Of a DNA stretch of 64,000 bases, positions 1 to 63,765 are shown piece after piece. Position numbers and translations under genes: made by a program. The notes below the pieces were generated by a model that saw only the letters and a program-made list of their open reading frames with translations, searched no databases and was not told the origin of the DNA. Every line of letters begins with the position of its first letter. The stretch's first letter is position 1. The stretch lies in the IMG/VR virus record IMGVR_UViG_3300044846_003008; one strand, written 5' to 3'. The stretch comes from a virus.

Positions 1-3000
1 TTACGGTTGGGGTGACAGTTCTTGTAGGTGTTACGGTTGGGGTGACAGTTCTTGTTGGGGTGACAGTTCTTGTTGGCGTTGGTGTAGGTGTTGGACAAAT
101 TCCACCACTACATAAACCTCTTCGATTTTTAAATGCTCCAAATAATCCTGATACGGTACTAACCCAACTTGATGAACATACACTAGCAGATTGTCCCGCA
201 TCAAGTGAGATTGTTGCAAAATTTCCTGAACAATCTATAAATGAAAATTCTCTACTAGAATCACCTATGGCTGATGCTACGCTTAAGTCCCAACAATAAC
301 AAGTGTTACAATATTGGCAAGACCCTAAAGCAGTTGCGGTTGCGGTTCCCAATATTTGAGGAATTGTACTTGAACATATCTCAAAATTTTCATTAAAAGC
401 AGTAACCGTTAATGGGGAACTAAGGACATTAGTACAACAAGGTGTGAAAGTAACAATGGCATCATCAACTAAAAAACCACCGGTGTAATTAATAAAATAA
501 CTAATACAAGGGGTTGTTGGTGTAGGGGTTTTTGTTGGTGTTGTCGTTTTTGTTGGTGTTACGGTTGGTGTTACAGTTCTTGTTGGTGTAGGTGTAGGTG
601 TTGGGCAAATAAAACCACCTTGGTTACATTGGAAACAACCACTAACAGTGATATCGTTAAAAGGGTAAATATTAACTTGATTCCATACTTTAGTTTGGAG
701 TCCTGCCGGATTGTTTAGGGTAATGTCATAACATTGACCTAACGTGTCAACTACCGTCCAAGAATTAAATCCTGTTGTTTGACTAATAAATGGTGTCCTA
801 TTAGTTGGTAATGACATTGCGAAAACTTGACCTGTACAACAACTAGCCACGGCAAATAATGAATATGGTGTTGTTGGTGTCGGTGTCGGTGTTTTTGTCG
901 GTGTTTTAGTTGGTGTGTTAGTTGGTGTTTTTGTTGGTGTTACGGTTGGTGTTTTTGTTGGTGTTGGTGTTTTTGTTGGTGTTGGTGTAACATTGACAGG
1001 ACCAACATTATATACGTACCCTTCTAAGTTACAAAGGATTGGTTGTGGTGTTTTAGTTGGTGTCGGTGTCAGTGTTTTTGTCGGTGTATTAGTTGGTGTT
1101 TTTGTTGGTGTTGGTGTATTAGTTGGTGTTTTTGTTGGCGTATTAGTTGGTGTTACGGTTGGAGTAACAGTTTTTGTTGGCGTATTAGTTGGTGTCGGTG
1201 TTGGACAAATAAATGATGTTGATTTTACCAATATAGTACCTGAAGAATCTTTAACCGCCACCCAATAAGTTGTTCCAAAAATTGAAACTCCGTAACCTAT
1301 ACTTGAAGTAGTAATCCAATTAGTGTTAGTTAATGCCTGAATTTGTGTTAAAAACACTGATGCTCCCACTTGATATGGTGGAAAACCACCAACAATGTTG
1401 TTTAAACTCACTGTTGCGGTAGTCCCATTACACGAGGATGTTACGGTAAAATTAAGTGGTGGTCTTGTATTCGTTGGAGTATTGGTTGGTGTTGTCGTTT
1501 TTGTTGGTGTCACGGTTGGTGTCACGGTTGGGGTAGGAGTTTTAGTTGACGTTGGTGTTGGGGTTGGTGTAGGACAAGGATTTGTGATTAAACAAGAGTT
1601 ACAGTTAAAATCCCCTCCAACAGGTGGAAACGCAGGTTTTGTATTATCCCAAATAATTGTTGTTGGTAATGAAACGGGTGTAAGTATTTTATAACATTTA
1701 CCATTAGTCGCGATTAAAACATAGTTTGTGTTTACGTATGGTGTTGGTACATTAATTACTTCATAGGTTGGTGATGAAATTGGGTCACAACAAGCAATTG
1801 CGTATGCGGATGAGTAAAAAGTTGTTTGTGTTGGGGTATTAGTTGGTGTTTTAGTTGGGGTATTAGTTGGGGTATTAGTTGGTGATTTAGTTGGGGTATT
1901 GGTTGGTGTTACAGTTCTTGTTGGGGTATTAGTAGGCGTATTTGTTGGTGTTTTTGTTGGTGTGTTAGTTGGGGTTACTGTTCTAGTTGGGGTATTCGTA
2001 GGTGTATTTGTCGGGGTGTTCGTAGGGGTATTCGTAGGTGTATTTGTTGGGGTTACAGTTCTAGTTGGGGTATTCGTAGGTGTTTTTGTTGGAGTGTTAG
2101 TCGGAGTATTGGTCGGAGTATTGGTCGGAGTAACAGTTCTTGTTGGTGTATTCGTAGGCGTTTTTGTTGGAGTGTTAGTCGGAGTATTGGTCGGAGTATT
2201 AGTCGGAGTAACAGTTCTTGTTGGGGTATTTGTAGGAGTGTTGGTAGGTGTTTTCGTAGGTGTATTTGTAGGTGTGTTGGTCGGGGTTTGAGTGTTAGAT
2301 GGAGTGTTGGTTGGCGTGTTCGTAGGGGTTTTAGTTGGTGTCACAGTACTTGTTGGCGTGTTCGTAGGGGTTTTAGTTGGGGTATTTGTTGGAGTATTAG
2401 TTGGTGTATTTGTCGGTGTCTGTGTTATAGTTGGTGTGTTAGTTGGGGTATTTGTTGGGGTATTTGTTGGGGTTTTAGTTGGTGTGTTAGTTGGTGTAAC
2501 GGTTCTTGTTGGGGTATTCGTAGGGGTTTGAGTTCTTGTGTTCGTTGGTGTGTTTGTTGGTGTATTTGTCGGAGTTTGAGTTCTTGTTGGTGTGTTCGTT
2601 GGGGTTAGAGTACTAGTCGGTGTGTTAGTAGGCGTTTCAGGTGGTGTTGAACCGGGTGTTCTTGTTGGTGTTGGGGTTTGAGTTCTTGTTGGTGTATTAG
2701 TCGGAGTGTTAGTAGGTGTATTAGTCGGAGTGTTAGTAGGTGTATTCGTAGGTGTATTCGTAGGTGTATTAGTTGGTGTATTAGTCGGAGTTACAGTTCT
2801 TGTTGGTGTATTCGTAGGGGTGTTCGTCGGAGTATTTGTTGGGGTATTCGTCGGAGTGTTCGTCGGAGTTACTGTTCTTGTTGGTGTGTTCGTTGGTGTG
2901 TTTGTTGGTGTATTTGTAGGTGTGTTAGTAGGTGTATTAGTTGGCGTTACAGTTCTTGTTGGTGTATTTGTTGGGGTATTAGTTGGTGTATTTGTTGGGG

Positions 3001-6000
3001 TTACGGTTCTTGTTGGTGTATTCGTAGGTGTATTTGTCGGTGTATTCGTTGGTGTATTTGTTGGGGTTACGGTTCTTGTTGGGGTGTTTGTTGGTGTATT
3101 TGTTGGTGTATTTGTGGGCGTATTAGTTGGGGTAACAGTACTTGTAGGTGTGTTAGTTGGGGTATTAGTTGGTGTGTTAGTTGGCGTGTTAGTTGGTGTG
3201 TTTGTTGGGGTATTAGTCGGAGTGTTTGTTGGTGTGTTAGTCGGAGTGTTAGTTGGTGTGTTAGTCGGAGTGTTCGTAGGTGTATTAGTAGGTGTATTAG
3301 TAGGTGTTACGGTTGGAGTTTGAGTTCTTGTTGATGTGTTAGTTGGAGTATTCGTAGGTGTGTTAGTAGGTGTGTTAGTTGGGGTATTCGTAGGTGTTTT
3401 TGTTGGTGTATTTGTCGGAGTATTAGTTGGTGTTTGAGTTCTTGTTGATGTGTTAGTTGGTGTATTTGTCGGGGTTGGTGTCAGTGTACTTGTCGGGGTT
3501 GGTGTTGGGGTTGGACAAGGGTTTGTTGATAAACAAGATGAACAATCAAATTCACCTCCAACAGGTGGGTATACTGGCTGAGTATCGTCCCATACAATTG
3601 TTGCTGGAATTGTTGTGATTGTAAGTACTTTATAACATTTACCATTAGTTGCAACTACAACATAATTAGAATCAACACCCGCATATAACAATGGAACCCT
3701 AATTACTTCGTATATAGGTGATATGTCACAACAAGCGATAGCATATGCTAATGTGAATGGTGTTGTTGAGGTTGGTGTTTGTGTTGGGGTTTTTGTCGGG
3801 GTATTAGTAGGGGTGTTTGTTGGTGTATTAGTAGGTGTGTTTGTTGGTGTATTAGTAGGTGTGTTAGTCGGTGTTTTTGTCGGTGTTACTGTTCTTGTTG
3901 GTGTGTTGGTTGGTGTTTGAGTTTGTGTTCTTGTATTAGTCGGTGTATTTGTTGGTGTTTTTGTTGGTGTTGGAGTTGACGTTGGCGTTGGTGTTGGGCA
4001 AATAAATCCACCTTGATTACATTGGAGACAACCACTAGTCGAATTATCGTTATAAAAATAGATATTAACGTTATTCCATACTTTAGTTGCCGGACCAAAA
4101 GGGGTATTTGGACTAATGTCATAACATTGTCCTAAAGTATCTACTACAGTCCAAGAACTAAACCCGTTTATTGGGTCAAAATATGGTGTATAGATAGTCG
4201 GTAATGACATTACAAACTGAGACCCACTACAACAATTAATAACAACAAATAATGAATGTGGCGTTGTTGGTGTTGGGGTATTAGTAGGGGTGTTAGTTGG
4301 GGTTACAGTACTAGTTGGGGTTACAGTACTAGTTGGTGTTTTTGTTGGCGTATTTGTTGGTGTGTTAGTAGGGGTGTTAGTAGGGGTATTAGTTGGGGTG
4401 TTAGTCGGAGTATTTGTCGGTGTTACGGTTCTTGTGTTAGTTGGAGTGTTAGTTGGAGTGTTAGTTGGAGTGTTAGTCGGTGTATTTGTTGGGGTATTAG
4501 TTGGTGTTACAGTTCTAGTTGGGGTTACAGTTCTAGTTGGGGTGTTCGTAGGAGTATTCGTAGGGGTATTCGTAGGTGTATTTGTAGGTGTGTTAGTTGG
4601 CGTATTCGTAGGAGTGTTAGTCGGAGTATTGGTCGGAGTATTAGTCGGGGTATTAGTTGGTGTTACAGTTTTTGTTGGTGTATTTGTTGGAGTGTTAGTT
4701 GGGGTATTCGTAGGTGTGTTAGTTGGAGTATTTGTTGGTGTTACTGTTCTTGTGTTTGTTGGTGTGTTAGTAGGTGTGTTGGTCGGGGTATTAGTTGGTG
4801 TTACAGTTCTTGTTGGAGTATTTGTCGGGGTGTTAGTTGGAGTGTTAGTTGGTGTGTTGGTTGGTGTTACAGTTCTTGTTGGAGTATTTGTTGGAGTATT
4901 TGTTGGAGTATTTGTTGGGGTATTTGTTGGTGTTACAGTTCTAGTTGGGGTGTTTGTCGGTGTGTTTGTTGGCGTGTTAGTTGGTGTGTTAGTCGGGGTA
5001 ACAGTTCTTGTTGCGGTATTCGTTGGAGTATTAGTCGGAGTATTCGTTGGAGTATTAGTCGGAGTATTAGTCGGAGTATTAGTTGGTGTATTTGTTGGTG
5101 TATTGGTTGGCGTATTTGTTGGTGTATTGGTTGGCGTATTTGTTGGTGTATTAGTCGGAGTATTTGTTGGGGTGTTAGTTGGAGTTTCAGTTGGAGTATT
5201 CGTAGGGGTATTCGTAGGTGTATTTGTCGGTGTATTTGTCGGTGTTTTTGTTGGCGTATTAGTCGGAGTATTTGTTGGAGTATTTGTCGGTGTATTAGTT
5301 GGGGTTTCTGTCGGAGTATTCGTAGGGGTATTCGTAGGTGTGTTAGTAGGAGTTTCTGTTGGCGTATTTGTTGGGGTATTCGTAGGTGTGTTAGTGGGAG
5401 TTTCTGTTGGAGTTGAAGTTGACGTTTTAGTCGGAGTATTTGTGGGTGTGTTAGTTGGAGTTTCTGTTGGTGTATTTGTTGGTGTATTTGTTGGTGTTGA
5501 TGTTTGGGTACTGGTAGGTGTTTGAGTTTGAGTTTTAGTGGGCGTTGGTGTGGGTGTTGGGCACGTATAAATTGGATTAAATGTGAAACAAGTTGCACAA
5601 TCAACCATTGAGCCCATTGAAATGTGTTGGTAAATATTTGTTGACGTTGTTGAAGGTATTGATTCAGCACAACCAACAAACCCATTTGTTGATATGAAAT
5701 AACTTCCGGATAATGGATAAAAACTATAAGGTATCTTAGAAATTGTGAATTCATTATAAGGTGAACAACAATTTCTAAACTTACCAACAATTGGTGGTAA
5801 TGTTGGTGTTGGCGTTGGGGTTGGGGTTTGAGTTGGTGTTGGTGTTGGGCAACCATTAGCGTCGCACCTTACTGAATAAACTACAGTTCCGGGCTCATCA
5901 ATCGTGACGTTATATCCGCAGAAATATAAGATGGTGTTTGGTAAAATTTGTGAAGAAATTTCGGTCCCATTACATAATGTTAAACTATAATTTAAATTTT

Positions 6001-49750: not shown

Positions 49751-51478
49751 TTAAAATTTTATATTAACTCCGGGTAAATTTTTCTTCCAAATAGGGTTGA
49801 TTGTTAATGTGAAAGTAATTTTAGGGTTAATATTGTAACTTAATGTTTTGATTATTTGTTGAGTGTCACCTATTTGAACACCAAATAAATCTAATTTAAA
49901 TGGAAACGTTGGTGTTGTTGTTGCTTTTAACACTTCACTCAAATCTAAACTCTTACCCGTAGTCCTATTATAGTTATTAATTTCGTCTTTAAGGTAATCT
50001 AATGGTTTCTTTTCTGTAATTGGGGGAAGAACCTTCAGGAAGTTTAAAACCTCTTTATTCTCAGTCTTTTCCAATTGTTCTCGAATGACTTTTTTCATTC
50101 GGTTGGATTCAATCAATTTATAGTTGTGTAAGAAATCATTGAAGGTTTCCAATGTATATGATTGGTCCTCACTTGCACCCCAAGGGTCGGTGGTTTTGAA
50201 CTTTCTAATAACTACGGTATCATCGTCAGTATCGACTCTAAGAATTTTAAATGAATAACCTTCAGATGCCGGAATTGGATGATTTTTATTAATCCCAAAC
50301 TTGGCAATAATTGTTTGATAAATCTGTAAAGTATCTTCCGAATAATCTTCAGTTACCTGTGTAAAGATTTTATCTAATTCATATTTAACATCATTATCAA
50401 ATGCGGTTTGATTAAAACCATTATATCCGTATTCATAAGAGTGTTCATAATAACCACTTGGGACTTTTATATTATAAAATGACTCTTTAAATAACTCCAT
50501 TAAAGTTAAATCAGTACTTGATGCGTCATCATATAATTTAAGTAATAAATTAACCGATGTAACATACTTAGACATACAATCTACTTTTATGATATAGTAT
50601 GGTAATAATATATTACAGAAATCATTTGTTATTTCATTTTTTGCCTCTTCATTTGCCGCACTATTTAGGTTTGATGCGTAGTCACTACATATACTACCAA
50701 TCTCATTAGGGTATAAATCATACAATAATTTTGACACCTCTTGAGATTCATCATCATTTGAAAGGTCAAAATTAAGTAAATTAGGGTTAATGTATTTCAA
50801 TATCTCTCTAATTTTATCAATATTTTCAGTACCAAAATAACGGATTAAATAACCTTCACCCCAATCCTCTTCCGCTCGATAAGAGTCCATAAACTCATAA
50901 CCATCATAATAACTGAATACCGCTTTAATAAACCATATATCGTCATCACTAATATCGTCAAACATTTTTAGAAATTCTTCTTCATCTTCAAATGTCAAAG
51001 TGATTAATGATTTACCCGGATTTCGTTCGGCAATCTTTATTTTACTTATTATGTTATCTTCATCAATATCTGAAAAATCGTAATATCTTGGGAATTCAGT
51101 TACCTTCCCATTTTTAATATCTAATAATGATTGATAAACACGTCCGTGACCTTTAATCTCATTAATAATTGGAATAACACTATCTAATTTTTGACTTTTT
51201 AATTTGTCTATAAAATCTAAATAACCCTCATCGTCAAAATCATCATTATAATATGTTAAATCACCATCTAAATCTCTGTACACATAATATCTTGCCCATA
51301 CGGAATTTTTATCCACTATAATATAAAAATCACCGTCTCTAAATCTTTGGACCCAATCTTTAACTAAAGACTCTTTAATATCGTCAGGTGCGTAGTATTC
51401 TATATCTGAAGCTTGTTGGACATCAACAACTATTACGTTGTCATCCTCAAACACTATTTTACGTTCATTTTCCTCCAT
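49751..51478 (-). CDS. Acidic hypothetical protein, possibly a two-module fusion
   Basis: 575 aa; internal LIES-NRMKKVIREQ junction. Confidence 0.75.
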   Translation of the reverse strand: MEENERKIVFEDDNVIVVDVQQASDIEYYAPDDIKESLVKDWVQRFRDGDFYIIVDKNSVWARYYVYRDLDGDLTYYNDDFDDEGYLDFIDKLKSQKLDSVIPIINEIKGHGRVYQSLLDIKNGKVTEFPRYYDFSDIDEDNIISKIKIAERNPGKSLITLTFEDEEEFLKMFDDISDDDIWFIKAVFSYYDGYEFMDSYRAEEDWGEGYLIRYFGTENIDKIREILKYINPNLLNFDLSNDDESQEVSKLLYDLYPNEIGSICSDYASNLNSAANEEAKNEITNDFCNILLPYYIIKVDCMSKYVTSVNLLLKLYDDASSTDLTLMELFKESFYNIKVPSGYYEHSYEYGYNGFNQTAFDNDVKYELDKIFTQVTEDYSEDTLQIYQTIIAKFGINKNHPIPASEGYSFKILRVDTDDDTVVIRKFKTTDPWGASEDQSYTLETFNDFLHNYKLIESNRMKKVIREQLEKTENKEVLNFLKVLPPITEKKPLDYLKDEINNYNRTTGKSLDLSEVLKATTTPTFPFKLDLFGVQIGDTQQIIKTLSYNINPKITFTLTINPIWKKNLPGVNIKF

Positions 51479-51535
51479 TTAATAAAGTTTTTTAATATAA
51501 ATATGCTCGGGACTTGGACTTTTCAGTTTTTTCAC

Positions 51536-51570
51536 TATATTTGTATAGAGAAACAATATGAGTTCTTTGA
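51536..51570 (+). promoter_or_regulatory. tmRNA promoter (-7 TATATTTG) and boxA-like GTTCTTTGA
   Basis: TATATTTG at 51536-51543; GTTCTTTGA at 51562-51570. Confidence 0.6.
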
Positions 51571-51575
51571 TTTAT

Positions 51576-51963
51576 GGGGATAACTTGGAATTGACTGGCA
51601 TTGTTAATTATTCGGGGCACGCAGTGAGAAGATTCCTATCACTTAAATCTATGGTATCAAATTACAAACGGCAACGTTTTAAACAAAATGGCGACTATCG
51701 GATTAATCCGTGAAGACGCTGCAGTAGCTGCCTAAGCTTAGGAAGACACTAACGGGTCGATGGACATATAACCTAGGAACAGAAGTCTTTACAAAGGTGG
51801 AAAAATGACTGAACCCGAAATCGAGTCATTCATTGGTTGTTAGTTTACGATGATGAAGAACAAACTTACTATTTTTGGAACATTAGAAAATGTTATCCTA
51901 AGCGTGTAGTCCTTAGTCTTTAAGGTGTACAACACGAGGGTTCGACTCCCTCTATCTCCACCA
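51576..51963 (+). ncRNA. ssrA: tmRNA
   Basis: 5' GGGGATA pairs with 3' TATCTCC-A-CCA including G3:U70; T-arm GAGGG-TTCGACT-CCCTC; tag ORF 51670-51735 GNVLNKMATIGLIREDAAVAA*. Confidence 0.93.
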
Positions 51964-51969
51964 AATAAC

Positions 51970-52000
51970 AAACCCCACCTTTTTAGGATGGGGTTTTTTT
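51970..52000. terminator. Terminator after tmRNA
   Basis: AAACCCCA..TGGGGTTT plus T run. Confidence 0.7.
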
Positions 52001-52005
52001 ATTTA

Positions 52006-52308
52006 TTATCTTCTTGTTCTTACTTTGAAAGGTCTTTTATGTTTGTCTTTATACGTATCAAATATTCTTTTACCACTTTCCCCTTTATCAAACCATCTAG
52101 TATCTTCCCCGTGTTTCGATTGTAAATCATCAAAGTCATCAAATTCTTCATCATCGAATTCCATATCATCAAATCCTGATTTACTAAAAGAACTGTCCTT
52201 TTCGTCATACCATTCTTCATCATCAAAAGAACCGTATTTAGATTCCTCAATTACTCTTTTAACTATACGTGTTAAATCCGCTTCAGTTAATCTTATAACT
52301 TTTTTCAT
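52006..52308 (-). CDS. Small acidic protein with N-terminal KKVIRLTEADLTRIVKRVIEE tag
   Basis: 100 aa; late motif at 52325-52331. Confidence 0.75.
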   Translation of the reverse strand: MKKVIRLTEADLTRIVKRVIEESKYGSFDDEEWYDEKDSSFSKSGFDDMEFDDEEFDDFDDLQSKHGEDTRWFDKGESGKRIFDTYKDKHKRPFKVRTRR

Positions 52309-52342
52309 ATTTTTAATTTTATTAATAAATATATTGGGGAAT

Positions 52343-52384
52343 AAAAAAAGGGAAGAAAAAACAATAAAGTTTAAACTTCCCTTT
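52343..52384 (-). terminator. Terminator of the minus-strand ncRNA operon
   Basis: AAAGGGAAG...CTTCCCTTT followed by a U run on the minus strand. Confidence 0.6.
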
Positions 52385-52755
52385 GATTTGTACTAGGGTT
52401 TCCCCTACCGAGTTTGTTAGTGATACAAACTACAGACTCTCTATCGTTGAGTGTTTCTAGAATTCACGGTTATAGGATATCATCATTCACTTTTTTTATA
52501 GTAGTACTTAATGACTGTGGTTATAATAACGTCCACAACTTAAAAAACAATCTACTTGTTATTTTTTTAACTTAACCTTCACTGTCTTTTCTTGACATTA
52601 CAGGAGAATGCTACTCTGGTTATTCGTTTTAAATATAAACGGGTGCACAAGATTCTATAAACCACCTAAATATAACAGAATGTTCTTGAGGTTCTTTTAT
52701 ACTCATCACTCAAAAGGGGTAACTGTTATCACCTCACACTTTTGTTTGGAGTCAC
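52385..52755 (-). ncRNA. Candidate ~370-nt structured ncRNA of unknown family
   Basis: No ORF; several hairpins incl. UAGGG-GAAA-CCCUA; GACUC/GAGUC long-range helix; lies between tRNA-Met and terminator; strand not fully certain. Confidence 0.5.
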
Positions 52756-52757
52756 TG

Positions 52758-52830
52758 TAGCAACGGACGGGAATCGAACCTGTTTGGGTCGGCTTATGAG
52801 ACCGATGAGATACCTTACCTCCCCCCTGCT
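52758..52830 (-). tRNA. Atypical tRNA-Met(CAT)
   Basis: TCGGT-CTCATAA-GCCGA anticodon arm, TTCGATT T-loop; bulged acceptor stem and G8. Confidence 0.7.
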
Positions 52831-52847
52831 ATATTTGGCTTTAAAAA

Positions 52848-53722
52848 AGGCTGAGATTATACCTGTTATTGAGAACCTTTGGAAGGATTATTGTTTCCCT
52901 TCGTATCCACTTTCTTTTGAAAAGTATTCCTCAGTGTCGGTTTTTTAGGTGAACCACTCCTTGAGACATCAACTACTCTCTCATTACTCAACTCTCTTCG
53001 AGAATGCCTCCCCGACTAATCCTTGCGAGATTAGAGGTTTTTGGTAAGAATACATTCAGACTTGCGGTCATCCTGTGCAATGAACAACTCATTACTATGT
53101 AGACACCTTTCGTTGATATCTGACGGACACTTTTGCTTTAGTTTAAATTTTAATTTTTACATTAACCTAGTAAAATAAAGTTTTTCGTGTTGTGGATTAA
53201 TCAAAGTAGTGGTCCGTCTTTCAGATTCGTCGTCTTTTGAACAACGAAATACCAAACTACTCTGTGAAGTATCCCTACCTCAATATTTTAAGATTACTTC
53301 GAAACAATTCTTTTGGTAAAGAATCATCAAGGAAAATTTCAGCACCACCTGTTTGTTTTCATACCTTTCGGTTTTAAGCCACCTCTTATAATGGAAGTCG
53401 TAATTGTAACGTTGGATACGATACTTCTTACATAAATCCTACGAGTTATTCCTATTAGAGTTCCCTCCTCAATCTGATGACCCACATCACCAAATCATAT
53501 AACCACTTTCTCTACATCGTTGACCTCGATACTAAAGGTTATACGGTATCCCGCTTGTGTACTCGACCTCGGTTTCCCAAGACGCAGACCCGTTACACTT
53601 GGGGGTCCACTTTATCCTACTTTCGTAGTTTATTTAATGACCATACACGGCCAATATCTTTATCAGTTTGTTACTCAAAATCAACCACAAGGGTCTCATC
53701 ATCAAACATTCTGAACGGATAA
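52848..53722 (-). ncRNA. Large (~875 nt) structured RNA, GOLLD-like
   Basis: Non-coding, relatively GC-rich; GNRA-capped hairpins on the minus strand; 3' end ACUGAGGA...AGGU-AUAAUCUCA-GCCU; tRNA-adjacent in a phage. Family recognised from memory, not searched. Confidence 0.7.
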
Positions 53723-53729
53723 TCAAATT

Positions 53730-53992
53730 TCAAAGAACGTCTCGGACATTTCCGATTTGTTTTGTAAAGTTAAGTATTTAATTTTGATTTGTCAAACACT
53801 TTTTTTAACTTTTTTTTGAGGTTTAGGAAACCACGGTTTTATAACTAATTGTCAACCTTTCCCTCATTTGTTTTACAAAGATACTTAATGTTTTTTGTTC
53901 TGTCAAGTACTTTGTAAACTTTATTTTCTGATTTAAATTACTTTGTTTCAGAATTGTTTAACAAATGTATGAAATAAATATCGGTAATCAAG
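53730..53992 (-). promoter_or_regulatory. Three tandem Bacteroidota-type promoters plus boxB/boxA-like leader
   Basis: -7 elements TACATTTG (53962-69), TATCTTTG (53876-83), TAACTTTA (53765-72), each with an upstream TTGA; hairpin 53742-55; GTTCTTTGA 53730-38. Confidence 0.6.
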
Positions 53993-54004
53993 TAAAAAAA
54001 CAGA

Positions 54005-54658
54005 TTATTTTAATAAATTTTTAATTCTTGAGATTTCTTCGTTCAAATTATCCTCGGAATCGTTTTTTTTCTGTTTTAGTCTTTCGTCTTTTTCTTTATT
54101 ATGTAATTGGAACATACCTTTACCAATTTTCTTTAATTCTTTACCGGCAATATCCGCACCTTTTAAAAGTTGGTTTGCCGCAAATTCGATTGGTAAAGTG
54201 ACAGGTGATAACGCATTAATTTCATAGTCTTTTGAATCACGATATCTTTTTGTTGGTTTTGTTTCTTTTTTGTCACTTACTTTAGATTTATCTTTAGATT
54301 CCTCATCTTTAAATAATTCACCATTTAAGAACTTCTTAGGATTGAGGTAATCTAAATTAGACGATAATACTGAATAAGTTATTGGTTCTTCAGAAAAAAA
54401 ACCAATTGTTGACCCACCACGAACATTATCGCTAAGATGAGCAAGAGTGTTATTAACACCACAAAATTGAGAATAGAATTTAGAGCCCCCAATATTATGT
54501 TGAATTAATAAATAACCATCAGAACAACTATTATTATTAGTTTTAACCACAACACCATCATAGGGGGACATAACTTTGTCCATCCTATATGACTTCAACT
54601 CCGCACTTTTAGATTTAAAATCTATATCTCCGTGGGTTATTTTATTTGATTTACTCAT
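54005..54658 (-). CDS. M23-like peptidase fold, probably inactive
   Basis: V.SPYDGVV....GY.LIQH...FYSQF; HxH zinc ligands not seen. Confidence 0.55.
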   Translation of the reverse strand: MSKSNKITHGDIDFKSKSAELKSYRMDKVMSPYDGVVVKTNNNSCSDGYLLIQHNIGGSKFYSQFCGVNNTLAHLSDNVRGGSTIGFFSEEPITYSVLSSNLDYLNPKKFLNGELFKDEESKDKSKVSDKKETKPTKRYRDSKDYEINALSPVTLPIEFAANQLLKGADIAGKELKKIGKGMFQLHNKEKDERLKQKKNDSEDNLNEEISRIKNLLK

Positions 54659-56051: not shown

Positions 56052-56078
56052 AAAAAAAAGTGGGTTTCCCCACTTTTA
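56052..56078 (-). terminator. Terminator after RNA ligase gene
   Basis: AAAAGTGGG..CCCACTTTT plus U run. Confidence 0.65.
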
Positions 56079-57131
56079 TAACTTTTTGAACTCAGGTCTT
56101 ATTAGTCTCCATATAGTTTCGTCGTAATCTTTTTTATCCCACATTTGAAACATCACACCTCTAAGTCCTTCTTTTATGTTTTTCATAACAAACTCTGCGT
56201 ATTCTTTCTTAGTTGGTTCAGGGTCAACATCACCATATTTCCCGTATCTAAACCCATCGTGCATTTTACCACAATATTCAGATATTGAATAGTGAGCGTA
56301 TCTCAAATCTTTAACGTAAGATTTTATTTTAGAATAGAATTCATCAGGAACTTCTTTCATCATTTCTAAAACATCATCACCATTTCTCAAACATTCCCAT
56401 ATACCGGTAGTAGATACGTTAGTCATTATTTTATGTAGACGTAAGTATTCCACACCTTTAACTTTCATTCTATCACCATTTGAGAATAACACTATAAACC
56501 CTTCAGCGTCGTCTCTAACCATTTGTTTTAACACAGAATAGTCAGATATACCATCGTAACGTTTAACAACTTTTAAACCGATATTTCGTATAAGATTTTG
56601 TATTCTCATATCTAAATCCCCGTGTAAGTTTACTTCATATCCGTGTTTAGTGTTTGTCGAGCCAAGTAAAACAACATCTTCAAAATCATATGAACAAACT
56701 ATTCTGTTTTCAGCATATATTATTTCAAATAAGTAAGTGAAGTCTTTATGTAATTTGTTGTAATCATAATTAGATAACATTTCCATACCTTTCACCGCTT
56801 GGTCGGAAGTAAATGAACCACGAGTTGCCATAACCCATTCCCCTTCGTAGTGGAATAATATCCCCAATGAACCATCCATTTTCTCATAGACTTTGAAATC
56901 ATCAGTTGGGGTGTGTTTACCTTCCTCCATATTGAAGAATTTTCTAAATGGTCTTGCAACTATATTACCGTTGTCGTCAGTTACTAAACCACGACACATC
57001 AAAGTCACCTCATCCCATAAGTTCTCAAACTGAACTTTCTCAGTGTAATTCCATATGGTTAATGGTAAAGTTGGATGTACTTGTTTGTACAATAACCCAT
57101 CATTGTAATATTTTTCTAAAGTTGCTTTCAT
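56076..57131 (-). CDS. T4 Rnl1-like RNA ligase
   Basis: CRG, RPFRKFFN, EKMDGSLG, TRGSF, FEII, EGF, KVK..EY. Confidence 0.85.
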   Translation of the reverse strand: MKATLEKYYNDGLLYKQVHPTLPLTIWNYTEKVQFENLWDEVTLMCRGLVTDDNGNIVARPFRKFFNMEEGKHTPTDDFKVYEKMDGSLGILFHYEGEWVMATRGSFTSDQAVKGMEMLSNYDYNKLHKDFTYLFEIIYAENRIVCSYDFEDVVLLGSTNTKHGYEVNLHGDLDMRIQNLIRNIGLKVVKRYDGISDYSVLKQMVRDDAEGFIVLFSNGDRMKVKGVEYLRLHKIMTNVSTTGIWECLRNGDDVLEMMKEVPDEFYSKIKSYVKDLRYAHYSISEYCGKMHDGFRYGKYGDVDPEPTKKEYAEFVMKNIKEGLRGVMFQMWDKKDYDETIWRLIRPEFKKL

Positions 57132-57143
57132 ACAACAAATATA

Positions 57144-58085
57144 CTAAATTCTTTTAATAATCGTACCGTCTGAATAGTGAAAAAATTTCATTCCAGGTGA
57201 ATCTACCGTAACGTCTTGACCTAATGTGTTTGTTATCTTAATTAATTCGGGGGTGAATTTACGATTATCAATTGATATGATATTAAAATCTTTTGATTTA
57301 CCATCATAATCGGTTTGCGTTAAATAATAATATGAAATATCATTAAAATAACCCCTCTCTAAGTATTGGTAAAAATGCGTAAATGATGAGGTTCCGACAC
57401 CATCAACTTTTGCGACTTCCACCCAATTAATTGGGTAATATGTTTTAAAAATTGTGAAGAATTGATTATTAGTTTCTGTGGCAGTCGCCCATTCAAGTAA
57501 ATTACCATCCTCAGTTTGTTTACCCTTGAAGTATAATAATTCAATAGGTAAACCTACAGGTTCAGATTCAAAGATTGATAAGTCATCTAAATATGCTGAT
57601 GTTGGACCACCATAGATTGTGTTAGTCCATATTTGAAAATAACCCGACCCTGCGTATGTGGATAATATAGTAAACGACCATTGATACCAAGTATTCCAAT
57701 TTGAATTACAACTTGAGTTAGTTTGATTATCAGTTGTTAATAATGTTGTTTGATTTGGTAACTCATTAGTGTTTACAACTACCGAACAAACACGTTTTGT
57801 GTAAAAGGTTATTGTGTAATTATAATTCGCTTTAAAAGTAATAGGAATATAAATATAAATTGAATTACCATTTGCCGCGGATGAAAATCTTGAGGAATAC
57901 TTCGTCGCGTCAAAAACATTACGATAATTTCCTGTGGCACTTTCATTCCTGTTAAAGACCCAAACATTTGAAGTTGATGACCATCCTGATGGTGATACAC
58001 TTGAGAAGTGTTGGTCAACAAGATAAGTCTGTCCATAAGTGAATATAGACAGACTTAACATTAAGATATTAATTAAAGTTTTCAT
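57144..58085 (-). CDS. Secreted protein with signal peptide and T9SS-like C-terminal domain
   Basis: MKTLINILMLSLSIFTYG|Q; LPIELLYF...L.W.TATE.NN..F...YYYLTQTDYDG; C-terminus ITNTLGQ....YSDGTIIKRI. Confidence 0.7.
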   Translation of the reverse strand: MKTLINILMLSLSIFTYGQTYLVDQHFSSVSPSGWSSTSNVWVFNRNESATGNYRNVFDATKYSSRFSSAANGNSIYIYIPITFKANYNYTITFYTKRVCSVVVNTNELPNQTTLLTTDNQTNSSCNSNWNTWYQWSFTILSTYAGSGYFQIWTNTIYGGPTSAYLDDLSIFESEPVGLPIELLYFKGKQTEDGNLLEWATATETNNQFFTIFKTYYPINWVEVAKVDGVGTSSFTHFYQYLERGYFNDISYYYLTQTDYDGKSKDFNIISIDNRKFTPELIKITNTLGQDVTVDSPGMKFFHYSDGTIIKRI

Positions 58086-59116
58086 TTCTCATTTAATAAG
58101 AATTTATTAGAGATTGCTTTGAAACTGATTTTTCTGTCGTGTGAACGAATAACTAGCCCCTCTCTTTCGGTTTTAATATTTAAAACAGACTTACCTTCAG
58201 CCATTAACAATAATTCATCAATTGTTTCAGGTAATGTAAAATCTAAGTCGAGAATTGGAACCGTTTTCACTTCCAAAATTTTAGTCAATTCAAGCAAATC
58301 ATCTAACGATAAATAGTCGTACTTGTCAATATCAAATCCGTTGAATATTCTAACTGTTTGACCAATACGTTGGTAAGGATTTCCTTGAATTCCTTCACCG
58401 ATGATTTCACCTTGTACCGCAAGGTTTTTCTCCAATCCAACCAACTTATCACGTAATCCTGATTCGATTGCGAATTTCCACATAGAATTGTTCACATCCT
58501 CCAATAAATCCAAGTTTCTTGAACACACTCCAAATACCCCGTCTTTAACGTAGTAAGTTACACTAGAACCATCTAATTTCTCAGTTACGTAGAATTTCGC
58601 CAATTTGTAGATAGGGTATTCTTTTGTCAAGTTTTGAACTCTTTCTTCATCAGTTTTCTTTAAAAATGAAGGAAAATTACCTTTAACTTGTCCTGCCAAT
58701 TGTGCGGGAATTGGTGGTTCGTATTTCACAATGTTTAACATTTCTGTTACGTCAAGACCTTCAAACCAACCCATATCCATATTCGGTGTGTTTCTTTTGA
58801 AAACATCGTAAGCCTCTTTAAGGGGTAAGATTAACCCTTGAGAGATTTGACCTCGTAATCTGATTGTTTTCAAACGGAAACCTTCATTACCGTCCGCCAT
58901 TTTTTTGTATGAACTCTTACGTAAAAATTCAAACTCAGGTTCAATAGGTAAAAATGAGTCAACCTCACAGTAAACAATTAAGTCACCTACTTTATGATTT
59001 ACATCTTTAGCAACAACAACTTTCCATCCGTCAATTGTTGCCAATTCAATTTTGTCAGCCCCTTCGATTGGACTTAAATCAGAAATTTGTCTAATACTCG
59101 CTAATTTTCTTTCCAT
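58082..59116 (-). CDS. RNA ligase, DRB0094/Rnl2-like family
   Basis: RKLASIRQI..L.PIEGADKIE, TEKLDGSS, QGEIIGEGIQGN, REGLV, FKAISNKFLL. Confidence 0.88.
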   Translation of the reverse strand: MERKLASIRQISDLSPIEGADKIELATIDGWKVVVAKDVNHKVGDLIVYCEVDSFLPIEPEFEFLRKSSYKKMADGNEGFRLKTIRLRGQISQGLILPLKEAYDVFKRNTPNMDMGWFEGLDVTEMLNIVKYEPPIPAQLAGQVKGNFPSFLKKTDEERVQNLTKEYPIYKLAKFYVTEKLDGSSVTYYVKDGVFGVCSRNLDLLEDVNNSMWKFAIESGLRDKLVGLEKNLAVQGEIIGEGIQGNPYQRIGQTVRIFNGFDIDKYDYLSLDDLLELTKILEVKTVPILDLDFTLPETIDELLLMAEGKSVLNIKTEREGLVIRSHDRKISFKAISNKFLLNEK

Positions 59117-61874: not shown

Positions 61875-61941
61875 AACATTAAGTTTTATGTTACGAAGAT
61901 ATATAAATTTTGGGGAAAAACATACGGAATAGAAAAAAAAG

Positions 61942-62048
61942 TTATTAATACAGGATTCGAACCTGTGAGTCCCCGTGTATAGGTATCATACATACCACAT
62001 TCCCGGACTTTATGTATGCTCAACCTTAAGCCACTCGGTCAATTAATT
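61942..62048 (-). ncRNA. tRNA-like RNA without a recognisable anticodon loop
   Basis: D-arm ACCGAGTGGCTTAAGGT and T-arm ACAGG-TTCGAAT-CCTGT intact; all-AU acceptor stem; ~56-nt centre. Confidence 0.55.
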
Positions 62049-62051
62049 AAC

Positions 62052-62259
62052 CACCCCTGAGATTACGGGGTGTAGATGTCCTCAGTTTTTCTTATACAAA
62101 ACCCAACGCGTCTTACCGCTTAAAAATCAACCATTACGTCGGAGTGAGGATGGTGTTCCACACTATTAGCCCAACGACCCCCTTTACAAATCCTAATGAG
62201 GTATCAGATATATCATTGTTTAAGTAACGATACCAAATCTAGTGAGTTTCTCGAACTCA
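62052..62259 (-). ncRNA. Candidate ~210-nt structured RNA sharing the 3' module of the GOLLD-like RNA
   Basis: Helices UGAGUU/AACUCA, GGUAUC/GAUACC, GCG/CGC; terminal CACCCC-GUAAUCUCA-GGGGUG preceded by ACUGAGGA. Confidence 0.6.
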
Positions 62260-62262
62260 TTG

Positions 62263-62337
62263 TGGAGACAGTGGGAATCGAACCCACCACACGGTGATTG
62301 CAAATCATCATCGCCACGCCTTGGAACATTTGCCCCC
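62263..62337 (-). tRNA. tRNA-Cys(GCA), atypical
   Basis: GGGGGCA/TGTCTCC acceptor, loop TTTGCAA, GTGGG-TTCGATT-CCCAC; A8 and A73. Confidence 0.75.
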
Positions 62338-62342
62338 AAATT

Positions 62343-62444
62343 TAGACAACAGGTAATACTCACATTTATTATTACCTAACTCAACGACCTCTGCAGTTGT
62401 GAATCTGTTTTAAAGGTTTTCCTCGGTGAAGAGTTTGTTGTCTA
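62343..62444 (-). ncRNA. Candidate ~100-nt structured RNA (copy A)
   Basis: Closing helix TAGACAACA/TGTTGTCTA; internal AGGTAATA/TATTACCT hairpin; motifs AACUGCAG and GUUGAGUU. Confidence 0.5.
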
Positions 62445-63252: not shown

Positions 63253-63281
63253 AACTGACTGTTATACTGTTTATTTTATTG

Positions 63282-63354
63282 AGCGGGTGGGGGGAATCGA
63301 ACCCTCGTCCTTAGATTGGAAGTCTAATATAATAAGCCACTATACGACACCCGC
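63282..63354 (-). tRNA. tRNA-Gly(TCC)
   Basis: GCGGGTG/CACCCGC, U73, TTAGA-CTTCCAA-TCTAA. Confidence 0.9.
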
Positions 63355-63360
63355 AATTTG

Positions 63361-63435
63361 GGTAGAATCAGACGCGTTCTGTCTACCGAGACCTCGACGT
63401 TGTACTATGTTTCAAGTCAGAGCGTACCGAGACAC
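63361..63435 (-). ncRNA. Candidate two-hairpin small RNA between tRNAs
   Basis: Hairpins 63393-63422 and 63361-63387; 9-nt direct repeat GUCUCGGUA. Confidence 0.4.
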
Positions 63436-63440
63436 TATTG

Positions 63441-63520
63441 TGAACCTGGAGGGAGTCGAACCCTCAATCCTAAAAATCGCGGCTTAAACACGACGCGTAT
63501 ACCAATTTCGCCACAGGTCC
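63441..63520 (-). tRNA. tRNA-Leu(TAA)
   Basis: GGACCTG/CAGGTTC, A73, loop TTTAAGC, short variable arm. Confidence 0.85.
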
Positions 63521-63526
63521 TTTTTG

Positions 63527-63599
63527 TACCCCTACAGGGATTCTAACCCCGATTAAACCCTTAGAAGGGGTTGGTCCTATACAGTTGAACGATAGGGGC
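63527..63599 (-). tRNA. tRNA-Arg(TCT), divergent
   Basis: AACCC-CTTCTAA-GGGTT; T-loop TTAGAAT; D-loop lacks GG. Confidence 0.75.
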
Positions 63600-63608
63600 G
63601 AATTATTG

Positions 63609-63680
63609 CGGACTATGTAGGATTCGAACCTACGACCTATCCGTTAACAGCGGAGTGCTCTACCACTGAGCTAATAGTCC
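63609..63680 (-). tRNA. tRNA-Asn(GTT)
   Basis: GGACTAT/ATAGTCC, G73, loop CTGTTAA, canonical T-arm. Confidence 0.92.
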
Positions 63681-63692
63681 ATTTAATTGTTG

Positions 63693-63765
63693 AGGTCCCT
63701 AACGGATTCGAACCGTTATCCCTGGGTTACAAAGCCAGAATAATAAGCCATTATACTAAGAGACC
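63693..63765 (-). tRNA. tRNA with TGT anticodon (nominal Thr)
   Basis: GGTCTCT/AGGGACC, loop TTTGTAA, AACGG-TTCGAAT-CCGTT. Confidence 0.75.

Follow-up and report, generated by a model that had tools for sequence, protein, structure and literature searches.

A GOLLD RNA gene with the domain order of env-38 in an uncultured large phage

The GOLLD locus and its surroundings

The stretch of viral DNA analyzed here (the window; 64,000 nt from IMG/VR record IMGVR_UViG_3300044846_003008) carries on its minus strand, at 53722-52848, a region that an earlier note had read from the letters alone as a phage GOLLD RNA adjoining a tRNA. The covariance-model search bore this out. The Rfam GOLLD model (RF02032) matched 53264-52848 (minus strand) at 316.3 bits with an E value of 1e-89, which is twice the model's gathering score of 150 bits, and the match covered model positions 1 to 416 of 416 without truncation. 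The last position of the match, 52848, was exactly the 3' coordinate proposed in the note, and the proposed 5' coordinate, 53722, proved to be the first base of a structurally conserved leader hairpin (P0) upstream of the published core. GOLLD RNAs are among the largest and most elaborate noncoding RNAs of bacteria and phages, and the structure of their cage was solved only recently; the family was reportedly described by Weinberg et al. in 2009. As elsewhere in the family, the window RNA lies in a phage context beside tRNA genes and has relatives from lake metagenomes. Neither ROOL nor any other large-RNA Rfam family was matched in the stretch (gathering threshold; E values of up to 1 across 51400-54100). 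ROOL, which forms RNA-only cages of 6 or 8 subunits in phages and prophages and has no known function, resembles the window RNA in being a large phage RNA encoded near tRNA genes, but the two are unrelated in sequence and fold.

On the same strand as GOLLD, and 15 to 18 nt after its 3' end (about 18 nt had been claimed), ARAGORN and Rfam place a tRNA(CAT) at 52759-52832 and 52759-52829, respectively, with an Rfam score of 27.2 bits, below the threshold of 29. A phage tmRNA gene (51576-51963, plus strand; RF00023, 74.5 bits) is convergent with GOLLD and received no call from ARAGORN; its sole long open tag frame, which is unusually long, reads ...GNVLNKMATIGLIREDAAVAA and stops at 51733-51735. 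Between these genes lies an ORF for an acidic protein of 100 aa (52006-52308, minus strand) with no Pfam or PHROG match. The stretch coding for its N terminus (MKKVIRLTEADL..., 52335-52237) is present in three copies each in the related loci L017, L035, and L046, which suggests a multicopy family of small proteins in these phages. About 370 nt of noncoding sequence (52385-52755, minus strand), without an Rfam match, separate the tRNA(CAT) from a terminator-like hairpin; these are absent from the closest relative, L035, as an indel relative to the window. The "dedicated noncoding operon" of the earlier note is partly right, since the 2.5-kb intergenic block also contains the oppositely oriented tmRNA gene and the 100-aa ORF.

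The flanking genes belong to phage-like families (RNA ligases, M23 and VanY peptidases, and a ClpB-like ATPase), and, together with the adjoining tRNA(CAT) and an array of five tRNAs at 63281-63765 (ARAGORN), they agree with the phage noncoding context beside tRNA genes that had been proposed. Two RNA ligase genes with the orientation of GOLLD, one of the Rnl1 (T4) type (56076-57131, minus strand) and one of the Rnl2/PHA02142 type (58082-59116, minus strand), lie 2 to 5 kb upstream of it. Among phage homologues, those closest to the Rnl2-type ligase come from cyanophages, a Limnohabitans phage, and 735-kb uncultured phages (42 to 47% identity).

The host probably belongs to the Bacteroidota, because none of the 53 ORFs of at least 120 aa was preceded by a Shine-Dalgarno motif (GGAG, GAGG, or AGGA at -20 to -5), the leaders of these ORFs are 83% A+T, and a TAnnTTTG box occurs upstream of GOLLD. 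The same observations make the earlier label of a Bacteroidota phage plausible, on indirect support. Such an association is not new, since the published GOLLD alignment lists partial matches in Flavobacterium and Bacteroides genomes. A search for GOLLD in 3 Bacteroidota metagenome-assembled genomes and 151 sampled Bacteroidota genomes gave no match, but it is uninformative, as the control genomes likewise gave none. A 20-nt GOLLD motif matched named genomes 37 times, and Rfam found GOLLD in none of them; a pattern of 17 specified bases should turn up about 70 times in 596 Gb, so these matches are attributable to chance and say nothing about host range.

Elsewhere in the window, tRNA-like pieces occur in an odd order at 61940-62345 (minus strand). 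A T arm and the 3' strand of an acceptor stem (62337-62260; Rfam tmRNA tRNA-like domain, 25 bits) are followed after 62260 by a stretch of about 210 nt containing a hairpin with a GUAAUCUCA loop, like that of GOLLD L27, and ACUGAGGA upstream of it, and the arrangement ends with a weak class II tRNA-like 3' part. No relatives of this stretch were found by exact pattern. A candidate mini RNA within it (62052-62259) had been proposed to share the GOLLD L27 loop. TAATCTCAG has three occurrences in the window, where 0.18 would be expected. For the pattern that combines ACTGAGGA...GTAATCTCAG, 83 loci gave no match, and its 10 matches in IMG/VR, none of them in a comparable hairpin, look like chance; second copies in relatives did not lie in good hairpins either. 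The first 6,000 nt of the window (1-6000) show an extreme GC skew (+0.33 to +0.66) and a negative AT skew relative to the rest.

Conservation of both domains among related phages

RF02032 is a model of the conserved 3' domain (416 positions), and the 5' half of the RNA lies outside it; an annotation based on Rfam would therefore report 52848-53264 and miss both the 5' half and the leader. Since the model represents the 3' domain alone, the 5' half needed a test of its own, for which the env-38 GOLLD RNA was used. This RNA, from the GOS metagenome, forms a protein-free 14-mer cage with D7 symmetry (PDB 9MEE; Kretsch et al. 2025, PMC12286853), and its sequence was taken from the supplement of the cryo-EM paper on the 14-mer. 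Three pieces of env-38 aligned with the window: one with 53653-53547 (78% identity; score of 88 versus a maximum of 44 in 200 shuffles), one with 53472-53374 (67% identity; 50 versus a maximum of 38 in 200 shuffles), and one with 53352-53234 (74% identity; 84 versus a maximum of 35 in 200 shuffles). The pieces occur in the same order as in the window and span env-38 nt 1 to about 420, nucleotide 1 corresponding to about 53655; the env-38 positions are approximate because about 17 of the stated 833 nt are missing from the PDF text. Because the pieces align in the same order, the RNA as a whole is a standard GOLLD of the same two-domain type as env-38, with a cap-forming 5' domain (approximately P1 to P13; 53265-53655, minus strand), delimited by the env-38 alignment and covariation, and a ring-forming 3' domain (P14 to P27; 52848-53264, minus strand), delimited by RF02032 and helix covariation.

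The two RNAs also share P21a and P21b, a self-complementary GC in loop L21a, an A/U-rich internal linker, and an adjoining Met-type tRNA. They differ in that the window RNA has an additional conserved leader (CGUUCUUUGAA plus P0) upstream of the first base of the env-38 construct, and in that tRNA(CAT) lies downstream of GOLLD in the window, whereas env-38 lies downstream of its tRNA-Met. The cage of env-38, moreover, has been solved, while the window RNA is known here from its sequence.

All four GNRA hairpins that had been reported for the minus strand were present, namely, CUAC-GAAA-GUAG (about 53628-53617), UUGG-GAAA-CCGA (about 53585-53570), CC-GAAA-GG (about 53369-53360), and, in P21a, CUAAUCUC-GCAA-GGAUUAG (53034-53016). 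The GAAA loops at about 53624-53621 and at 53366-53363 are conserved in the GOLLD 5' domain. Two copies of the reported GAGUAG repeat lie inside the RNA (53263-53258 and 52978-52973), both at positions conserved in the Rfam consensus. Within the 3' domain, a 10-bp long-range pairing of CAGAUAUCAA (53121-53112) with UUGAUGUCU(C) (52973-52964, minus strand), the Rfam pseudoknot, showed compensatory changes in most of its 10 pairs (alignment columns 772-781 with 921-930). The A/U-rich linker of this domain (about 53197-53140, minus strand), between its first helix and the pseudoknot, was recognized by low posterior probabilities and insertions in the model match; it varies in length and is unconserved among the relatives in alignment A1 (defined below). 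It is the counterpart of the env-38 linker (nt 497 to 538), which is disordered and points into the cage (PMC12286853).

A search of IMG/VR with the 20-nt motif, which comes from the 3' domain, yielded 43 phage loci. Of these, 38 share the entire stretch of approximately 900 nt at 71 to 82% identity and collapse to 23 distinct sequences; another locus, L035, is 92% identical to the window, and its stored stretch ends within the 5' domain. All 15 relatives that were scanned with Rfam scored 310 to 335 bits for GOLLD. Alignment A1, which comprises the window and the 23 distinct relatives (24 sequences), gave 183 pairs predicted by RNAalifold, 104 of them with compensatory changes. The 3' domain accounted for 80 predicted pairs, and its helices covary. 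In the 5' domain (53653-53266), 99 pairs were predicted in 21 helices, with standard pairs in 97.8% of the cells. Double changes were seen in 65 of these 99 pairs, compared to 13 to 19 pairs in slid controls, in which partners were shifted by 1 to 3 columns and pairing dropped to 34 to 44%; the gap between the observed values and the controls is large. None of 500 shuffles reached the pairing and covariation values of the 5' domain, a count that is not a probability, because the sequences are interrelated and the structure was derived from the same alignment. These results show that related phages preserve the two domains through compensatory changes, and this covariation, together with the E value of the model match, puts the find well outside what chance would give.

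A further locus, L003, belongs to the Acinetobacter phage vB_AciJM_313 (PX050566.1, about 81150-82136), where an unannotated gap of about 985 nt within an array of 23 tRNAs is 66% identical to the GOLLD 3' domain of the window. This gap is probably an unannotated GOLLD gene in a cultured phage that has a laboratory host.

Three other readings of the region were weighed against this evidence. The earlier note had kept in reserve a new class of giant RNA, unrelated to GOLLD, should the model fail; that fallback is excluded because the model matches over its full length at 316 bits, and with env-38 aligning in the same order as well, we give it virtually no weight. Nothing spoke in its favor: the folding energy of the GOLLD stretch, taken as a single sequence, was uninformative (z of -1.08 relative to shuffles, similar to -1.14 for the downstream 419 nt), and thermodynamics alone does not discriminate. 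Equally negligible is the chance that the stretch is not an RNA gene but codes for small proteins, such as the 81-aa product of an ORF on the plus strand (53477-53722). Short ORFs of 40 to 81 aa do occur on both strands, but these are expected by chance in 900 nt at 34% GC; as had been noted, there is no credible ORF, since none of more than 81 aa overlaps 52848-53722 on either strand. Substitutions follow base pairing and not codons, and relatives carry indels of nontriplet length across the region. It also seems highly improbable, if slightly less so, that the locus is a decaying GOLLD or untranscribed, nonfunctional DNA. The degenerate appearance of the adjoining tRNA could be taken that way, but every model position is matched without truncation, the compensatory changes among the 24 sequences show that selection still maintains the structure, and the intersubunit loop has stayed self-complementary. 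We are highly confident that an uncultured large phage encodes a canonical GOLLD RNA, complete in length, at 53722-52848 (minus strand).

Leader, promoter-like elements, and RNA ends

Two promoter-like elements precede the RNA on the minus strand. The upstream element, P1 (53866-53927), consists of TTGACA (53906-53901), a 17-nt spacer, and TATCTTTG (53883-53876), a perfect instance of the Bacteroidota -7 consensus TAnnTTTG; the element gave 10 of 12 matches in a sigma-70 scan and is conserved in relatives. The proximal element, P2 (53742-53817), with TTTGAC (53796-53791) and TAACTTTA (53772-53765), is a diverged copy of P1, is likewise conserved in relatives, and is followed by a small hairpin (53755-53742). 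Within the window, the pair did not behave as a multicopy motif. We infer a promoter function for both elements, which are consensus matches, the sigma-70 scan finding as many sites in shuffled sequence; the transcription start is predicted at about 53760-53755.

Alignment A1 revealed the motif CGUUCUUUGAA (53729-53739, minus strand), which is separated from the -7-like box by about 25 nt and from the leader hairpin downstream by 6 nt. GTTCTTTGA is at least 90% conserved in A1 between variable flanks, and CGUUCUUUGAA is nearly invariant across 22 relatives. For CGUUCUUUGAA, we could identify neither a convincing partner for base pairing nor a role in the promoter. The leader stem-loop P0 (53656-53722, minus strand), which abuts helix P1 of GOLLD, consists of UUAUC...GAUA enclosing UCAG...CUGA and a variable apical hairpin. 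Single-sequence folds of relatives independently gave the same nested stem from differing sequences (UCAG/CUGA, UUAGA/UCUAA, and CUAG/CUAG), and P0 lies outside the env-38 cryo-EM construct. A pairing of leader UUGA with UCAG of L27 that was proposed by RNAalifold did not covary and was set aside.

At the other end, the terminal hairpin P27 with loop AUAAUCUCA (52842-52864, minus strand), recognized from the sequence and the Rfam match, is followed by a run of six U residues (52847-52842), and a U run is present there in nearly all 24 aligned sequences. P27 and its U run are possibly a weak terminator or a processing spacer. A second hairpin, AAAGGGAAG ... CUUCCCUUU with a U run (52343-52384, minus strand), resembles an intrinsic terminator more strongly than P27 does and was missed by a simple terminator scan because its loop is too long; it is the likely end of any transcript that reads through GOLLD and the tRNA.

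These features would be consistent with the following course of events. Transcription would begin, judging from position, at one or both of the Bacteroidota-type promoter-like elements (53927-53742) and pass through the conserved leader, with CGUUCUUUGAA first and P0 after it. The transcript would then either terminate at P27 and its U run or extend into the tRNA(CAT) 15 to 18 nt downstream, in which case an RNase P cut at the 5' end of the tRNA would free the GOLLD 3' end. Whether GOLLD is coprocessed with a functional tRNA is uncertain, because the tRNA is aberrant and received no ARAGORN call in the closest relative, L035.

The leader also bears on whether this RNA should be called a GOLLD variant, as the earlier note had done. 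It might be a member of the family whose biology is altered by clade-specific additions (P0, CGUUCUUUGAA, and a fused aberrant tRNA(CAT)), which could change the oligomer number or tether a tRNA-like cargo. CGUUCUUUGAA and P0 are conserved in the clade and lie outside the env-38 construct, tRNA(CAT) recurs beside GOLLD in the clade, and small differences in helices are known from published work to shift GOLLD stoichiometry (10, 12, or 14 subunits). On the other hand, P0 may simply have gone unreported in standard GOLLD loci, the core follows the order of env-38 and scores as high as any family member, and tRNA adjacency, including the Met-tRNA beside env-38, is already published (PMC12286853). 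On balance, we consider an altered biology unlikely: "GOLLD" was right, but "variant" was overstated for an RNA with the env-38 domain order and relatives that score 310 to 335 bits in 15 of 15 scans. The canonical GOLLD gene at this locus is real but ordinary, a member of a known and structurally characterized family, and adds nothing new in kind to it.

Cage contacts and a possible role in translation

In env-38, loop L21a makes a symmetric kissing contact between half-cages, and a switch between GC and CG has been reported at this contact (PMC12286853). The P21a hairpin of the window RNA (53016-53034, minus strand; loop C-GC-AAG) has GC as its L21a dinucleotide (53026-53025). Across the 24 sequences, the dinucleotide was always self-complementary: 12 sequences (that of the window and those of 11 relatives) had GC, 9 had CG, and 3 had AU. 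These data are an independent replication of the published covariation, and they support the presence of the same quaternary contact in the clade of the window RNA.

A second GOLLD of known structure, that of Streptococcus agalactiae (Sag), has 700 nt and forms a dodecamer (PDB 9L0R; PMC12990946). Sag GOLLD lacks P9, P11a to P11c, and P21b; it assembles into 12-mers, and its isolated 3' domain assembles into 10-mers (PMC12990946). It belongs to the same family as the window RNA and has the same 3'-domain core, but the window RNA, which carries both P21a and P21b, differs from it in having kept P21b and in having a full-length 5' domain of the env-38 type. By homology, the window RNA is likely to form a cage. 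It would most likely assemble without protein into a closed, hollow cage with dihedral symmetry, as env-38 does, with the 5' domains forming the caps, the 3' domains forming the rings, and the A/U-rich linker pointing inward. The presence of P21a, P21b, and a 5' domain of full size makes a 14-mer the probable form of the cage, although GOLLD oligomers vary, as the Sag 12-mers and the 10-mers of the isolated 3' domain illustrate, and stoichiometry is not readable from sequence.

We know of no GOLLD whose biological job has been established, and the question is a long-standing one. Several features of the neighborhood touch on translation. In 13 of the 24 distinct loci, GOLLD has a tRNA(CAT) on its own strand no more than about 450 nt away, directly downstream in 5 and upstream in 8. 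In the window, the acceptor and T stems in the cloverleaf of this tRNA are mismatched; the same tRNA in relative L011 has an intact T stem, and the tRNA(CAT) of several relatives has a 1:72 mismatch and G-C-rich anticodon stems, like bacterial initiator tRNAs. A convergent tmRNA gene accompanied GOLLD in 7 of 15 relatives. That GOLLD is linked to tRNA genes, with a Met-tRNA in the case of env-38, has already been published (PMC12286853); we found no published report of a linkage between GOLLD and tmRNA in an unsystematic literature search. Near GOLLD in some relatives, ARAGORN also called tRNA-like genes with irregular anticodon loops ("anticodons" of 4 or 2 nt), at 4247-4337 in L015, 8236-8325 in L040, 3748-3821 in L001, and 1700-1787 in L002, and these may be tRNA mimics.

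Because its neighbors are a tRNA(CAT), a phage tmRNA, a tRNA array, and two RNA ligases, we tentatively suggest, as a guess from gene neighborhood, that the GOLLD cage might act on the translation apparatus in lytic growth by holding or shielding tRNA or ribosome-related cargo. A more specific proposal, which we regard as doubtful, is that GOLLD in this clade of lake phages is one arm of a conserved RNA island for translation rescue or initiation, in which the leader and the fused tRNA-like element are functional. Such an island would run from the tandem promoters through the leader (CGUUCUUUGAA and P0) and GOLLD to tRNA(CAT), facing the convergent tmRNA, and its leader and tRNA-like element would, as parts of the cage RNA, serve as a cargo tether or as processing signals. 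If this were true, tRNA(CAT), tmRNA, or stalled ribosomes would be the long-sought partner of GOLLD.

For the family as a whole, the locus makes modest contributions. It yields a usable set of about 24 different GOLLD sequences of full length that are closely similar to env-38, whose structure is solved, and that independently reproduce the covariation of an intersubunit contact. The conserved structured leader outside the published GOLLD construct is one usable addition, and the recurrent neighborhood of tRNA(CAT) and convergent tmRNA could guide experiments on the cargo or partners of the cage.
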